DNA of 64,000 nucleotides from positions 664,599 to 728,598 of the forward strand of contig DASYKI010000016.1 of NCBI GenBank assembly GCA_035995545.1, given 5' to 3'. A program made the translations under genes and the position numbers. Origin of the DNA: Candidatus Dormiibacterota bacterium (GTDB lineage: Bacteria; Chloroflexota; Dormibacteria; Aeolococcales; Aeolococcaceae). A model generated the notes under the pieces. It saw nothing but the letters and a program-made list of their open reading frames with translations. It had not been told where the DNA came from and did not search any database. This document shows positions 12,410-26,765 of this stretch, in pieces; the first letter of the stretch is position 1, and each line of letters starts with the position of its first letter.

Positions 12410-13092
12410 TCAGGTCGCCGTGGACCCGTCGTTGGCTCGCCCTGCTTGCTGGCGGACCAGATAGACGGCAGCCTCCGTACGCCGCGACAGGCCAAGCTTG
12501 GCAAGAACGTTGGAGACGTAGTTCTTCACCGTCTTCTCGGCGAGGTGGATGCGTTCGCCGATCTGTCGATTCGTGAGTCCCTCGGCGACCAGTTCGAGAA
12601 TGCGCCGTTCCTGCGGAGTCAGGTGCTCGGGTCCCGCGACCTCGATGGGCTCCTCGCCGCGGATGCGGGCGAGGACGCGCTCGGTGACCGCGCCGTCGAG
12701 CAGCGACTCTCCCCTCGCTACCTTCTTGATTGCCTCTATCAGCTCGGGCCCCTGGATCTGCTTGAGGACGTATCCCGAGGCACCGGCCATGATCGACGTG
12801 AACAAGGCCTCGTCGTCCGCGAACGACGTGAGCATGAGGACGCGGGTGTCGGGATGCGCGGACCGGATGTCGCGGCAAGCCTCGATCCCTGACCGTCCCG
12901 GCATGCGCACATCCATGACCACGACGTCAGGGGCCTGCTCATCAGCCAGCACCACGGCCTCGTCGGCTGTGCCGGCCTCGCCCACAACCACCATCGTGGG
13001 CTGGGTCTCCAGGAGCGCGCGGAGGCCACGCCGCACGAGATCGTGGTCGTCGCAGAGAAGGACCCGGGTTGAACCGGTCGGCTCGTCCATGC
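12410..13092 (-). CDS. two-component response regulator, NarL/LuxR family (DevR/DosR-like)
   Basis: Receiver domain (RVLLCDDHDLVRRGLRALL.., phospho-acceptor in VVVMDVRMPG, LTSFADDE, K in GASGYVLK) followed by a LuxR HTH (LTPQERRILELVAEGLTNRQIGERIHLAEKTVKNYVSNVLAKLG). Start at ATG ~13092 (MDEPTGSTRV). Confidence 0.8.
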
Positions 13093-13198
13093 CCGCAGTG
13101 TACGGGCTGCCGCCGGAGCCGACCAGGGTCCTTCGGTCCAGGGGCACAGGTGCCCATGGTCTCTAGCCGGAGGGTGGGAGAGGGCGAAAGCTGGTCCC

Positions 13199-15822
<2,624 letters not shown>

Positions 15823-15960: not shown

Positions 15961-18728
15961 TCAGCTGCGGTGCTCTTCGGCCTGTGCGCGCGGGACCGAT
16001 GGCTCCTGCTGATGCTGCGGCTCCGCGCGACGCAGGTGGCGCACCGAGAGCCAGGGGCGATCCTGCCACGGCATCACGCGCACCTTGGCATCAACCACCA
16101 CCGCACCCGATGGCGACGAGATGACCGGGTTCAGGTCCATCTCGGCGACCTCCGGGATGTCGGCAGCGAGTTGGGCGACCCGCAGCAGTGCGTCCTCGAC
16201 CGCGGCGATGTCGACCGGTGGCGCACCGCGATGGCCGTGCAGCAGTGGGGCGCCACGGATCGACTCCACCAGCTCGTGCGCGTCGACGTCGGTGAGCGGC
16301 AGGATGCGGAAGGCGCGGTCGCCGAAGACCTCGACAGCGGTTCCGCCACTGCCGAACATGATCAGCGGACCGAAGAGCGGGTCCTGCACGACGCCGATGA
16401 TCAGCTCCACGCCACCTGGCACCATGTGCTGGACGATGGCGCTGTGCATCGACCCGCCGAGGCGCTGCGCCATCGCTGCGTAGGCATCTCGCACCTCGGC
16501 TGCGGTACGCAGGCCGAGCTGGACTCCGCCGACGTCGGTCTTGTGCACGATGCTGCCGGACGCAACCTTGAGCGCCACGGGAATGCCGATCTCGCTCGCC
16601 GCGCGCGCGGCCGCCGACGCCGACCCCACCAGGCGCGACGGGGCGGTGGCGATGCCGTAGGCGTGGAGCAGCGCCTCGGCGGCATCGGCGTCCATCCAGC
16701 AGCCGTCGGGATGCCCGTCCAGCGCGCTGGCCACCACCGCGCGTGCTGCATCGGCGTTGATGCCGTCCAGCACGGGGAGCACCCCCGGGGGACGCTCGCG
16801 CCAGCGCGCATAGCCGACCACCGCGGCAAGCGCCTCCGCCGCCGGCTCGACGAAGGCGAACGACGGCACGGTGCGGCCATCTGCGTGGGGAACGGGCGGC
16901 TCTTGCATGGCCAGGAACGTGGCGATGACCGGGATGTCCGCACTCGCCGACGCGCTGGCGATCGCCTTGGCAACGGCGCCGGTGTCCACGGTGCGGACCG
17001 GTGCGTGGATGGCAATCAGAGCGTCGACCTCGCCACTGGCGGCGATGGCGGTGAGCGCGGTGCGGTAGGCGTCGGCACCGGCACCGGCACCGAGGTCGAC
17101 GGGGTTGCTCACACCGGCGACCAGCGGGGCGGCACCGCGCAGCGTTTCTGCCAGCCGTGGGCCGAACTCGGGAATGGTCAGCCGAGCGGCGTCGAGGGCG
17201 TCGGCGGCGAGGATGCCCGCGCCCCCAGCGTTGCCGACCACGCCGACGCGGGGCCCCCGTGGCAATGGCTGGGTGGCCAGAAGCGTCCCCACCTCGAACA
17301 ACTGCCGTAGGTCGTCGACGCGGATGACGCCCGCCTGGTGGAAGAGCGCGTCGACCGCGGTGTCGGGCGTGGCCAGCGATGCGGTGTGCGACGCAGCCGC
17401 CCTGCCGCCCGCCGCGCTGCGGCCAGCCTTGACCGCGACGATCGGCTTGTGGCGCGCCACCCGCGGCGCGATGCGGGCGAAATCCCGTGGATTGCCGAAG
17501 GATTCGAGGTAGAGGAGGATGACGTCGGTGTCGGAGTCCTGGTCCCAGTAGCGGATCAGGTCGTTGCTGCTGACGTCGACCTTGTTGCCCATGCTGACGA
17601 AGCTGGAGACACCGATCCCGGCGCCCCGGGACCATTCCAGCATGGCGATGCCGAGCGCTCCCGACTGCGAGGCGAAGGCGACGTGGCCCGGTTCCGGGGG
17701 ACTGTCGATGAAGGTGGCGTTGAGCCGCACTGCGGCCGCGGTGTTGACGATGCCGATGCAGTTGGGACCGACGATGCGCATGCCGCCGCGGTGGGCATGC
17801 TCGACCACGGTGCGCTCCATCGCCGCCCCCGCGTCGCCCATCTCGCCGAAGCCCGAGGTGACGATGACCAGGTCGCGCACGCCCTTGGTCGCGCAGTCGT
17901 CGACCACTTGCAGGACGTCACGAGCGGGCACGGCGAGCACTGCGAGGTCGACGTCCCCGTCGATGTCGCCGACGCTCGGGTAGGCGACCAGTCCGGCCAC
18001 CTGTGCAGACCGCGGGTTCACCGGATACACAGGCCCCTGGAAGCCACCGGCGATCACGTTGTCGAGGATGGCACGGCCGATGCCGCCGTCCCGGCCCGCG
18101 CCGACCACTGCGACGGAGCGCGGGCGCAGCAGTCGCCGGACGGAGCGCACCGCCGCCGTCCATCCGCGCTCCTCAACGGCGGCGAGCGACTCGACCGTCT
18201 GGATGATCTCCATGGTCACCGTGACCACGCCGTGCTCACTCTGCCGCACGTCACGAAAGCCTGCGGCGTGGAAGACGTCGAGCATGCGCCGGTTGTGGGT
18301 GAGGGTCTCGGCGACGAACTGCGTGATGCCCTGCGCCCGCGCGTACGCGGCCAGGCACTCCAGCAGCAGTGTGCCGAGGCCGCGGCCCTGGTGCGCATCG
18401 GCCACGACGAAGGCCACCTCAGCGCTGGCGCCGTCGACCAGCCGGTCGTACCGCGCGACGGCCACGATGTCGTCCTGCAGCACTGCGACGAATGCCATGC
18501 GGTCGTGATAGTCGACATGGTGAACCGCTGCACGTCGCTGCCGGTGAGATGCGGTCGTGGCGTGAAGAACCGGAGGTAGACGGTCTCCGCCGAAAGGCGG
18601 GAGTGGAACGCGACCAGTCCCGGTCCGTCGTCCTCGCGGATCGGCCGAAGATGGACGGTGGCCCCGTCGGCGAGGACGGAGTCCAATTCCCACTGCGCCG
18701 GGTAGGGCGGTGCCCCGATGGTGGTCAT
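15961..18728 (-). CDS. GNAT acetyltransferase fused to NDP-forming acyl-CoA synthetase (CoA-binding + ATP-grasp); apparent single-base frameshift near 18515-18525
   Basis: The N-terminal GNAT is split between the 18216..18728 ORF (MTTIGAPPYPAQW..SDVQRFT) and the 15961..18693 ORF (HVDYHDRMAFVAVLQDD..QGRGLGTLLLE). Downstream lie a CoA-binding domain (VAVVGAGRDGGIGRAI), succinyl-CoA-synthetase-like segments and an ATP-grasp. The two frames join cleanly if one base is added at ..TTCACC|CATGTC. Confidence 0.6.
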
Positions 18729-18875: not shown

Positions 18876-19506
18876 TCAGGATGCCGTGGGCCGAGGCACG
18901 GTGAGCGGAGTGGCTGTGGTCGCCGCGGGCTTCTTGGCACGGGCACCCGCACGCCAGCCGACCAGCTCGAAGGCCATTGCTCCGAGCACGACGATGGCGG
19001 CGATCAGCAGGCCGATGGCGGCGTAGAGGGCGTACTGCCCAACCTGCCACCACCCGTAGGCGTTGAGCAGGAGGCCGCGGAGGGTCTCACCCATGAAGAG
19101 GGTGGTGCGCTGGCCGCTCAGCGTAGCGACCACCTTGGCGTCCGGAGTCGGCTTGGCCTGCTCGGCGACCAGCTTGCCGCTGACCTGGGAGTAGGTCTGG
19201 CCGGCGGCGACCTTCTGCAGGTGCACGTTGATGTAGTCGTTGGCATAGGCCTGCGCCTGCGGGCCCGTGGTCACGGCCTGCCCAGCGTACTGCGAGAGGT
19301 CCGCGTACTGAGTGTCGCCCAGCGTCTTGGCGTCGAAGCCGGGCGAACCCACGGCCGGGACGGAGATGTTCTGGGCGGCCAGCTCGTCGCCCACCATGTT
19401 GTGCGAGAAGCTGTTCGCCCAGAAGAGGAAGCCTGCGGCGAAGCTGAGGATGCCGATCAGTCCCACTTGCAGGACGATGATCCGCCAACGGATTCCCTTG
19501 GTCATT
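18876..19506 (-). CDS. membrane protein (N- and C-terminal TM helices flanking an extracytoplasmic domain), unknown function
   Basis: Protein-like from MTKGIRWRIIVLQVGLIGILSFAAGFLFW.. to ..ALYAAIGLLIAAIVVLGAMAF; the upstream part of the track ORF is low-complexity. Confidence 0.5.
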
Positions 19507-19614
19507 GTCGTTCTCCCGGCTGGTGATGATGGGTGTGGCCGGTTGACCACGGTTTCATCCTGGCTGCCGAGGCGTTGTCGCCCTAGAGGCAGGCGCCCTA
19601 GATTGCCGGCGGGA

Positions 19615-19660
19615 GGAAGGTCCCGGGTCGGGACGAAGGTCCCTGGTGGCACCCGGGACG
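19615..19660 (-). promoter_or_regulatory. cluster of GGGAC/GTCCC palindromes including GGGAC-GAAG-GTCCC (DosR/DevR-box-like core) upstream of the membrane-protein gene
   Basis: GGAAGGTCCCGGGTCGGGACGAAGGTCCCTGGTGGCACCCGGGACG read from the sequence, ~110-150 bp upstream of the minus-strand start at 19506; the match to the TTSGGGACTWWAGTCCCSAA consensus is limited to the core. Confidence 0.35.
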
Positions 19661-19699
19661 CGAGACGGGGCTGTCAGCCCTCGTAGTTGGCCGCGATCC

Positions 19700-20270
19700 G
19701 CGCTGCATAGCGCTCCGCGACCACGTGTGGTATCCGGCGAAGACCGCGTCGCAGCGCACCAGGATCTCGCCATCGCGTGCGACCGCCACGTCGACTCCCG
19801 GAAGCGGCGGCCGCACCGTGCCGAAGCGCACGGCGCCGATGGGATTGACGCTGGTGACCCCGACGTCGTCCGACATCTCGTACAGGTCGCAGAGCTCGAC
19901 CCCGACCGCGTGGACGAAGCGAAGCACTTCGGGGGAGATCGGTGCTGCAGCGGTGATCATCACCGTCGCCTGGTCGAGACCCAGTCGGGCGCGAATCCGG
20001 CGCAGCACGAGGCGGTCCGCCAGCGCGAGTCGCCGTCCACGCGACGTGCGCACCGTCGTTGCTGTCTGCCGGCGCTCGACCGTGCGCCGTCCTCGGCGAT
20101 GGCCCAGCGGGCGAGAAGGCGCCGCGGACCGCGCTGCTCGCCGACGGCGTGTGGATGCGGTCGGCGATCTTCTCCCAGACTCGGGGTACGCCGACGAAGC
20201 ACTCACGGACGCCATGGGCCACCGGGTCCAATGGCACTGGCGGCACTGCGCGCAGCGTCGGAGAGTGCAA
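19700..20270 (-). pseudogene. frameshifted, truncated fragment of a long-chain fatty-acid--CoA ligase (FadD-like)
   Basis: Two minus frames carry consecutive pieces of the AMP-binding family. One has FVGVPRVWEKIADRI. The other has LGLDQATVMITAAAPISPEVLRFVHAVGVELCDLYEMSDDVGVTSVNPIG..GTVRPPLPGVDVAVARDGEILVR..VFAGYH. The N-terminal ~300 aa and the C-terminal domain are absent. Confidence 0.5.
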
Positions 20271-20301
20271 GGTACCCACCCTGTCATCCGAGGAGATTTG
20301 C

Positions 20302-22534: not shown

Positions 22535-22808
22535 CGGTCTGCCGAGGCTGCGTGGCGCGCCGTCACACCTCGCCAGCGCATCCTCGAGTCGCTCGTCGCC
22601 ACCCCACCGGGCCGTCAGGTCGTCACGGAACGATCAGCCGGTGGCGGCGAACGGTGACGCTGTGCTCGGTCACCCGACTCAGCATCGCCAGGTGCCATGC
22701 AGCGGCGCCAGAGGCCAACGATGGCAACACGTCCGCGCCGTCGCGGCACCACGGTCCCAACGCCCTCGGCCATTCGCCTCTGTCCGGTGGGACCGGCACC
22801 GGGTCAGC

Positions 22809-24110: not shown

Positions 24111-24136
24111 AAGGTCCGCGCGACGAGCGGGACCTT
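24111..24136 (+). promoter_or_regulatory. inverted repeat AAGGTCCGC-N8-GCGGGACCTT, 55-80 bp upstream of the HD-GYP gene
   Basis: Read from the sequence; the same AAGGTCC(C) word occurs twice in the 19615-19660 cluster. Confidence 0.3.
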
Positions 24137-24191
24137 CGTACGTGGTGAGCAGGCGTTCGGCCCTCGTCACGACAAGAAGCCTGTCACCACC

Positions 24192-26611: not shown

Positions 26612-26715
26612 CCGACGGCGGCGTTGGACAAACGTATGATCGGTGGCGTCATCGCCCCTCCGGCGAGCTCGGAAACGGCATGACGGCACAGTGCGGCGAA
26701 CCCCCGTTCCAGCCC

Positions 26716-26765
26716 ACGCCTTGGTAAGGCGTAGGCCGTGGGTTCGATTCCCACCTTGGGCTCCA
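26716..26765 (+). repeat. 50-bp direct repeat, copy 2 (tRNA-Thr 3' fragment without the 5' half) - candidate attR
   Basis: Exact 50/50 match to 11365-11414 in the same orientation. The upstream sequence does not form the tRNA 5' half, so this is a partial tRNA copy. Confidence 0.8.

Follow-up and report, generated by a model that had tools for sequence, protein, structure and literature searches.

At the Class I promoters of Mycobacterium tuberculosis, the response regulator DevR/DosR binds a conserved primary box, from which binding spreads cooperatively to neighbouring boxes of poor conservation (PMC3177182). In the example described, the box centres are 21 bp apart and helical phasing matters (PMC3177182). 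The half-site contacted by the protein is G4G5G6A7C8 (PMC3177182), and Lys179, Lys182 and Asn183 are the base-contacting residues in the DosR-DNA complex (PMC4082495). For OsdR of Streptomyces, the consensus is AGGGCCGATCGGCCCT (PMC5069765). Here a similar arrangement is described in a stretch of 64,000 nucleotides of Candidatus Dormibacterota DNA (contig DASYKI010000016.1), which was analysed at its full length, has a G+C content of 71% and is called the window below. The proteins that it encodes are identical to, or have their nearest matches in, proteins from metagenome-assembled genomes of this phylum. Positions 19611-19643 of the window, upstream of a gene for an uncharacterised membrane protein, probably form two DevR/DosR-type operator boxes in tandem on double-stranded DNA, used by the neighbouring DosR-like regulator. 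What is observed, and taken up in turn, is the anatomy of the sequence, the homology of the regulator and its sensor kinase, the conservation of the boxes, and an enrichment that is specific to one spacing.

On the plus strand, 19611-19659 reads GGGAG-GAAG-GTCCC-GGGTC-GGGAC-GAAG-GTCCC-TGGTGGCACCC-GGGAC. An earlier note, made from the letters of the window, had described a cluster of GGGAC and GTCCC words here. Its arrangements GTCCC-N5-GGGAC, GGGAC-N4-GTCCC (N4 being GAAG) and GTCCC-N11-GGGAC are all present, but of the three GGGAC words that it counted two are exact and the third, at 19611, is GGGAG. The middle palindrome, GGGAC-GAAG-GTCCC at 19630-43, was rightly seen to have the core spacing of the DevR/DosR box, and the word AAGGTCC(C) does occur twice at the site, in AAGGTCCC at 19617-24 and 19636-43. 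Two further features, both absent from that note, are a 19-nt tandem direct repeat (19610-28 and 19629-47, 89% identical) and a perfect 9-bp inverted repeat (19620-28 and 19651-59) enclosing the perfect palindrome. The cluster lies, as had been said, upstream of the membrane-protein gene, which is on the minus strand with its ATG at 19505. The tandem boxes, named box 1 for the palindrome and box 2 for the imperfect copy next to it, occupy 106-138 nt upstream of this ATG, within a 168-nt spacer bounded on the other side by the stop codon (19674-76) of a FadD-type gene that is likewise on the minus strand.

The claim that a DevR-like regulator is co-resident with the site was borne out, since the product of 12410-13090, with Response_reg and GerE domains, has M. 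tuberculosis DevR/DosR as its best solved relative (3c3w, E 4.8e-61, 209 bits). The next relative is VraR with 144 bits, and NarL scores 140 bits against the 209 bits for DevR. Identity to DevR is 52% over 206 residues, and in the alignment to 3c3w the recognition-helix segment AEKTVKNYVS, which holds the residues equivalent to Lys179, Lys182 and Asn183, is identical in the two proteins. The kinase encoded nearby carries one GAF domain only, which matches the haem-binding GAF-A of DosT (2vzw, E 1.6e-47) and that of DevS (about 1e-43). The proximal His (HPPM) and the distal Tyr (LYLT) are kept in this domain when the alignment is read against PMC4082495.

The likeness to the M. tuberculosis Dev boxes, for example those of tgs1-Rv3131 and Rv3134c-devRS, includes palindromic GGGAC half-sites, a 4-bp spacing, an A/T-rich centre and the pairing of a conserved primary box with a degenerate secondary box. 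The neighbourhood of universal stress protein (USP), haem-GAF kinase and NarL-type regulator is also common to both, together with the identical Lys, Lys and Asn. In tgs1-Rv3131 the boxes lie in a divergent intergenic region, as they do in one related locus (L006), and genes of the Hsp20, CBS and USP types are linked to boxes in related Dormibacterota loci. Among differences from M. tuberculosis, the window kinase has one GAF in place of GAF-A plus GAF-B, the regulator gene is parted from the kinase gene by an oppositely oriented gene, and the first gene here is for an uncharacterised membrane protein. Moreover, the host belongs to Candidatus Dormibacterota and not to Actinomycetota. With OsdR/OsdK of S. 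coelicolor the Dormibacterota sites share the N4 spacing, the G triplets, the preference for A before GGG and the nearby USP genes. OsdR sites are a G+C-rich variant of the M. tuberculosis box and differ from it in the flanks, as the window box does; many Dormibacterota boxes are in fact of the OsdR type GGGCC-N4-GGCCC or mixed GGGCC/GTCCC, whereas the window box has A/T at the fourth position, as in M. tuberculosis, and not C/G. OsdR also comes from a different phylum, and the Dormibacterota regulon content set beside it is only glimpsed, from 80 partial loci. Generic NarL/FixJ operators, such as the NarL 7-2-7 heptamer pairs, have in common with the present site the protein family and a dimer on an inverted repeat, but the NarL heptamer sequence and its 7-2-7 geometry are unrelated to GGGAC-N4-GTCCC.

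Loci for phylogenetic footprinting were chosen by similarity of the membrane protein only. In five of them (L002, L005, L006, L008 and L090, with 81-84% protein identity) the gene-sense pattern (G/A)GGAC-N4-GTCCC-GR-CNCGGGAC-N4-NNCCC is kept at -146 to -106 from the ATG. The box 1 form, GGGAC/AGGAC-N4-GTCCC, is kept at -128 to -146 in these five and in L091 (78% identity), which has GGGACCTTGGTCCC at -128, beside a ChrB_C gene. The box 2 form, GGGAC-N4-NNCCC, is kept in L005, L006, L008 and L090, and appears in L002 as AGGAC, 1 bp closer. Five more loci were selected by protein (72-84% identity), and four of them have an A-type box within 230 nt. Upstream of box 1 the relatives can no longer be aligned, the N4 spacer differs from locus to locus (CTTC, TTTG, CATG, CTAG), and the upstream neighbour varies between an intact FadD, a divergent zinc-dependent alcohol dehydrogenase (Zn-ADH), an ABC-like gene, a divergent USP and ChrB_C. 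Only the window, L008 and L090 have the third half-site, on which the outer inverted repeat depends; it does not occur in L002, L005 and L006.

Further conserved islands in this promoter region are GCCTCTRGRGCG, CAGC.A.GATG, a GTGGTC..GGCCAC hairpin and the ribosome-binding site. GCCTCTRG is invariant in the five orthologues, with a similar GCCTCTG in more distant loci, and CAGC.A.GATG is invariant in the orthologue alignment. The L013-L025 group has CAGGATGA again, some 60 nt ahead of the ATG. All six pairs of the hairpin, which probably belongs to the 5' untranslated region (5'-UTR), are kept in the five orthologues. In distant loci (L013-L027) a different hairpin, CCTGG...CCAGG and similar, was observed at the same position, about 30-50 nt before the ATG, and this suggests that structure is what is conserved. 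The direct repeat given in the earlier note as two copies of GCCCTAGA is present, as CGCCCTAGA at 19579 and 19594, but only the gene-proximal copy is conserved, in the form of GCCTCTRGRGCG on the gene strand. A metagenome scan with a DNA pattern anchored on the ribosome-binding site and start codon, intended to gather further promoters without favouring the boxes, yielded nothing beyond the L008 contig already in use and a single chance match.

Wider statistics were drawn from 82 loci of the membrane-protein family in GTDB Dormibacterota genomes, 1.08 Mb in all. The exact motif GGGACN4GTCCC was observed 17 times, compared with 4.45 +/- 1.9 expected. When the spacing was scanned as GGGAC-Nk-GTCCC, these 17 matches at k=4 stood against 0-4 at other values of k, except for 13 at k=7. 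The excess at N7 was rejected as a real signal, for it was traced to one conserved coding motif (..TTCGGGACGCTGGTCGTCCCCCGGGCC..); 11 of the 13 matches are this single motif in an orthologous gene of loci L037-L076, about -8.2 to -9.1 kb from the family gene. The degenerate form GGG[AC]C-N4-G[TG]CCC, which covers the Streptomyces form, gave 89 matches at N4 versus 6-30 at other spacings. Of the 89, 43 are intergenic, where intergenic DNA, taken as sequence outside long biased open reading frames, makes up roughly 24% of the total. Within 250 nt upstream of the family gene the same motif (GGGMC-N4-GKCCC) had a density of 0.93 per kb, versus 0.066 per kb elsewhere. At unselected box positions the centre is 72% A/T, which agrees with the TWWA centre of M. 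tuberculosis, and A or C is preferred before GGG; these preferences also fit the Streptomyces consensus.

When each box was assigned to a gene lying 15-350 nt downstream of it, the genes behind the boxes were the membrane family (13), DosR-like regulators (8), a 173-aa family (7), cytochrome b-like genes (7), Pyridox_ox_2 (6), Zn-ADH (3), PAS-HisKA_3 kinases (3), one Hsp20 and one CBS+BON gene. This set we take to resemble the M. tuberculosis DosR regulon. Among the genes in these loci, the membrane protein, with its two transmembrane (TM) segments, is the one most often preceded by boxes, and it habitually adjoins a soluble single-GAF kinase.

Several observations weigh against the assignment. 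The earlier note had itself called the flank match to the DevR box poor, and 14 of the 20 positions agree with the M. tuberculosis 20-mer TTSGGGACTWWAGTCCCSAA, the two middle positions of the box centre being A/T and the flanks not fitting TTS...SAA. The centres of box 1 and box 2 are 19 bp apart (18 bp in L002) and not 21 bp as in the M. tuberculosis example. No sigma-70 consensus promoter was found by the promoter scan of 19350-19850, no equivalog model of NCBIfam reaches its cutoff for the regulator or for the kinase, and in the window scan the USP and regulator genes were without a strong upstream box, the regulator's own box (13127-39) being degenerate. In the counts over the 82 loci, orthologous sites were counted repeatedly, so that these are not independent events; an exact upstream box is present in only 19 of the 82, and many distant family members lack one. 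The palindromes RGGACC-N3-GGTCCY, which have one extra central base, are as enriched upstream of the family gene as the N4 class, and box 2 can be aligned to them as well. Finally, in the window GGGACN4GTCCC was observed once versus 0.28 expected, at least one copy being found in 26 of 100 shuffles, and the degenerate GGGMC-N4-GKCCC once versus 1.24 expected. The motif thus occurs inside the window at background frequency, a result which the earlier note had named as one that would speak against it, and the case must therefore rest on conservation in other genomes.

These window frequencies are what would be seen if G+C-rich words had clustered by chance, without function, in a 71% GC spacer, yet such a cluster is extremely improbable as the explanation. 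Relatives at 72-84% protein identity keep the box in the same place, although the spacer around it has diverged. The enrichment concerns one spacing and intergenic DNA specifically, and the orthologous sites, with their different N4 spacers, are not recent identical copies. Even in the window, the four-word cluster is the sole spot in 64 kb with at least three such words inside 40 bp, and only 4 of 200 first-order Markov simulations reached four clustered words, despite having more words to cluster; GGGAC and GTCCC are under-represented in the window, with 154 observed versus about 244 in the simulations. From the window alone, p is at best about 0.02. A further proposal is that the site is a real operator but that of another transcription factor, either a paralogous NarL/LuxR-type regulator or a factor recognising RGGACC-N3-GGTCCY. 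Upstream of the family gene both classes, N4 and N5 as counted between GGAC and GTCC, are enriched, and many loci have more than one NarL-type regulator and several HisKA_3 kinases. In more distant loci RGGACC-N3-GGTCCY holds the proximal position, and many loci have it about -100 from the family gene; in L008 a perfect GGACC-GAA-GGTCC (16347-16360) precedes the regulator gene, where the promoter of the window regulator has only the degenerate copy GGACC-GAA-GGACC. Because both spacing classes are enriched and box 2 fits either, two regulators or one flexible regulator are possible. On the other side, the DosR recognition helix, which the window regulator shares without change, contacts exactly this GGGAC half-site and N4 spacing; in eight loci a box immediately precedes a DosR-like regulator gene; and the family gene is linked to a GAF kinase or regulator in most loci. 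Another factor is accordingly considered rather unlikely.

An RNA element was also weighed, in which the nested inverted repeats (GUCCCGGGU/ACCCGGGAC around GGGAC-CUUC-GUCCC) would serve as a terminator without a U-tract, as a stabiliser of the FadD 3' end or as the 5' leader of the membrane-protein mRNA. The minimum-free-energy fold of the minus-strand RNA gives exactly this nested hairpin, the 188-nt spacer folds better than its shuffles (z -2.59), and in the window, L008 and L090 the site follows the FadD stop codon at a distance of at most about 60 nt. The 81-nt core, on the contrary, is of ordinary stability (z -0.89, with 37 of 200 shuffles folding equally well), there is no T-run terminator in 19350-19850 on either strand, and no Rfam match falls at the site, the whole-window scan having given three tRNAs only. 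The outer helix is 69% paired across the five orthologues, and the inner helix is without covariation, four of its five pairs being invariant and the fifth broken in L005. Loci in which the upstream gene is missing, of another kind or divergently oriented (L002, L005, L006, L091) still have the boxes. Of the 19 upstream boxes, 7 show asymmetry at the fourth pair (A with G, or C with T), which breaks pairing and is tolerated by a degenerate half-site, and the enrichment follows one spacing, N4, and not stem stability. A role of the site as RNA in place of an operator is thus quite improbable; a secondary role as 3' structure of the FadD transcript may exist in the window, L008 and L090.

For the tandem DevR/DosR-type operator, a working scheme can be outlined in which binding of the regulator, its action as an activator and not a repressor, the signal and the reach of the transcript are all drawn by analogy with M. 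tuberculosis and Streptomyces. The DosT/DevS-like kinase would sense O2, NO or CO via its haem and phosphorylate the DosR-like regulator (12410-13090). A dimer of the regulator would bind box 1 through the conserved Lys-Lys-Asn recognition helix, and a second dimer would be recruited cooperatively to the weaker box 2. The bound complex, placed by the boxes at the upstream edge of the conserved promoter region of the membrane-protein gene, would then activate a weak downstream promoter. The transcript may run through a co-directional string headed by the membrane protein and followed by the GNAT/acyl-CoA synthetase, the tandem USP and the haem-GAF kinase; since the kinase lies downstream of the boxes, a positive feedback loop would result. 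A known switch would in this way be extended to a new phylum; the type of mechanism is not new, and is what a specialist would expect of a DosR homologue. A bolder version, which is tentative and on balance doubtful, holds that a DosS/T-DosR haem-sensing circuit with the same DNA code is native and widespread in Dormibacterota, that the two-TM protein is a phylum-specific component of the pathway, either membrane anchor or co-sensor, whose induction closes the positive feedback, and that the N4 and N5 palindromes belong to two paralogous regulators sharing promoters. A literature search within the searchable library found no paper linking Dormibacter* with DosR, DevR, DevS or DosT.

The earlier note had gone on to propose a regulon signature for the co-resident NarL-family regulator. 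Its idea of a DevR-type box is upheld by the identity of the helix, the conservation and the N4 enrichment, but the extra regulon sites found no support. The inverted repeat AAGGTCCGC..GCGGGACCTT is present at 24111-24137, about 57 nt before the ATG (24193) of an HD-GYP gene, but its half-sites are everted, GGTCC..GGACC, unlike the DosR arrangement. L008, the one related locus with the HD-GYP gene, stops within that gene. The region 24111-24142 before this HD-GYP/PAS gene holds GGGACCTTCGTACG (24129-42), with 11 nt in common with box 1 and its centre about 57 nt before the ATG. AAGGTCC is over-represented in the window, with 10 observed versus 3.1 expected; as a regulon signal, as the word had been put forward, this excess was rejected, because beyond the two intergenic sites the six other copies in the window lie in coding sequence and lack a partner half-site. 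A scan with the M. tuberculosis 20-mer consensus and the degenerate core gave no strong second site in the window, the best others being GGCACCACGGTCCC at 22745 (intergenic) and one at 15689 (coding). The former (22745-22758) is one mismatch from the box and precedes, by about 80 nt, a rubrerythrin-like gene of 168 codons' product length (168 aa, ATG 22831); after it, at about 22777, a GCCTCTG was noticed that resembles the conserved GCCTCTRG of the membrane-gene promoter.

The 209-aa membrane protein has no Pfam or NCBIfam match, and its AlphaFold model, all-helical with a predicted local distance difference test (pLDDT) score of 85, gave no fold match below E 0.1 in the PDB. Its family has more than 2500 database matches and very often adjoins GAF-HisKA_3 kinases or NarL regulators. 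The synthetase gene behind it is split in comparison with the intact 906-aa homologue of L008, residues 1-70 being in one frame and 71-902 in another; the frameshift is either a real pseudogene or an assembly error of the metagenome-assembled genome (MAG). The FadD-type acyl-CoA ligase upstream of the boxes (19674-20290, minus strand) is a decayed remnant, which has kept the original C-terminus and stop and covers residues 286-301, 303-322 and 340-444 of an intact 615-aa relative from L008 in three frames. Elsewhere in the window, a tRNA match at 26686-26762 stands at the Rfam gathering threshold (29.4 versus 29 bits) and may be a divergent or degraded tRNA. The coordinates of the features are collected in the table.

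Table. Elements of the proposed operator and promoter, and genes around them, in window coordinates.
Feature	Positions	Strand	Description
GGGAG word	19611-15	plus
GTCCC word	19620-24	plus
GGGAC word	19630-34	plus
GTCCC word	19639-43	plus
GGGAC word	19655-59	plus
Box 1 (primary)	19630..19643		perfect palindrome GGGAC-GAAG-GTCCC; gene-sense (minus) GGGAC-CTTC-GTCCC; centre 131.5 nt upstream of ATG
Box 2 (secondary)	19611..19624		gene-sense GGGAC-CTTC-CTCCC, one mismatch; centre 19 bp downstream of box 1 centre
Extra half-site	19651..19659		GGGAC 19655-59 and 3' arm of the 9-bp inverted repeat with 19620-28
GCCTCTAGGGCG	19579..19590	minus	gene-sense; conserved element including the proximal direct-repeat copy; possibly the -35 region or a further weak site
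CGCCCTAGA	19594..19602	minus	distal direct-repeat copy; not kept in relatives
CAGCCAGGATG	19556..19566	minus	gene-sense; candidate -10 region, from conservation
Hairpin GTGGTC-AACC-GGCCAC	19535..19550	minus	one G-U pair; likely 5'-UTR
Ribosome-binding site GGGAGAA	19511..19517	minus	invariant in the five-orthologue alignment
Membrane-protein gene	18876..19505	minus	ATG 19505; 209 aa, two TM; Dormibacterota-wide family; putative target gene
GNAT / ADP-forming acyl-CoA synthetase gene	15961..18728	minus	co-directional with the membrane-protein gene; frameshift near 18519
Tandem USP gene	14908..15822	minus
Sensor kinase gene	13674..14849	minus	single haem-type GAF (DosT/DevS GAF-A-like), HisKA_3 and HATPase
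SRPBCC-like gene	13199-13687	plus	between kinase and regulator genes
DevR/DosR-like response regulator gene	12410..13090	minus	NarL family; presumed box binder
Degenerate box GGACC-GAA-GGACC	13127..13139		37-49 nt before regulator ATG; divergent intergenic region shared with the SRPBCC-like gene

If the operator is true, the DevR/DosR regulator-operator pair would be conserved outside Actinomycetota, down to the contacted bases and the tandem-box design of the promoter. It is chiefly as the latency switch of M. tuberculosis that this pair is known, and its new host would be an uncultured soil phylum that is thought to persist by dormancy. The boxes would supply a position weight matrix for regulon reconstruction in MAGs. 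Together, the operator, the regulator, the kinase and a candidate regulon (membrane protein, USP, Hsp20, CBS, PPOX-like and alcohol dehydrogenase genes) would provide a testable handle on the low-oxygen response of Dormibacterota.

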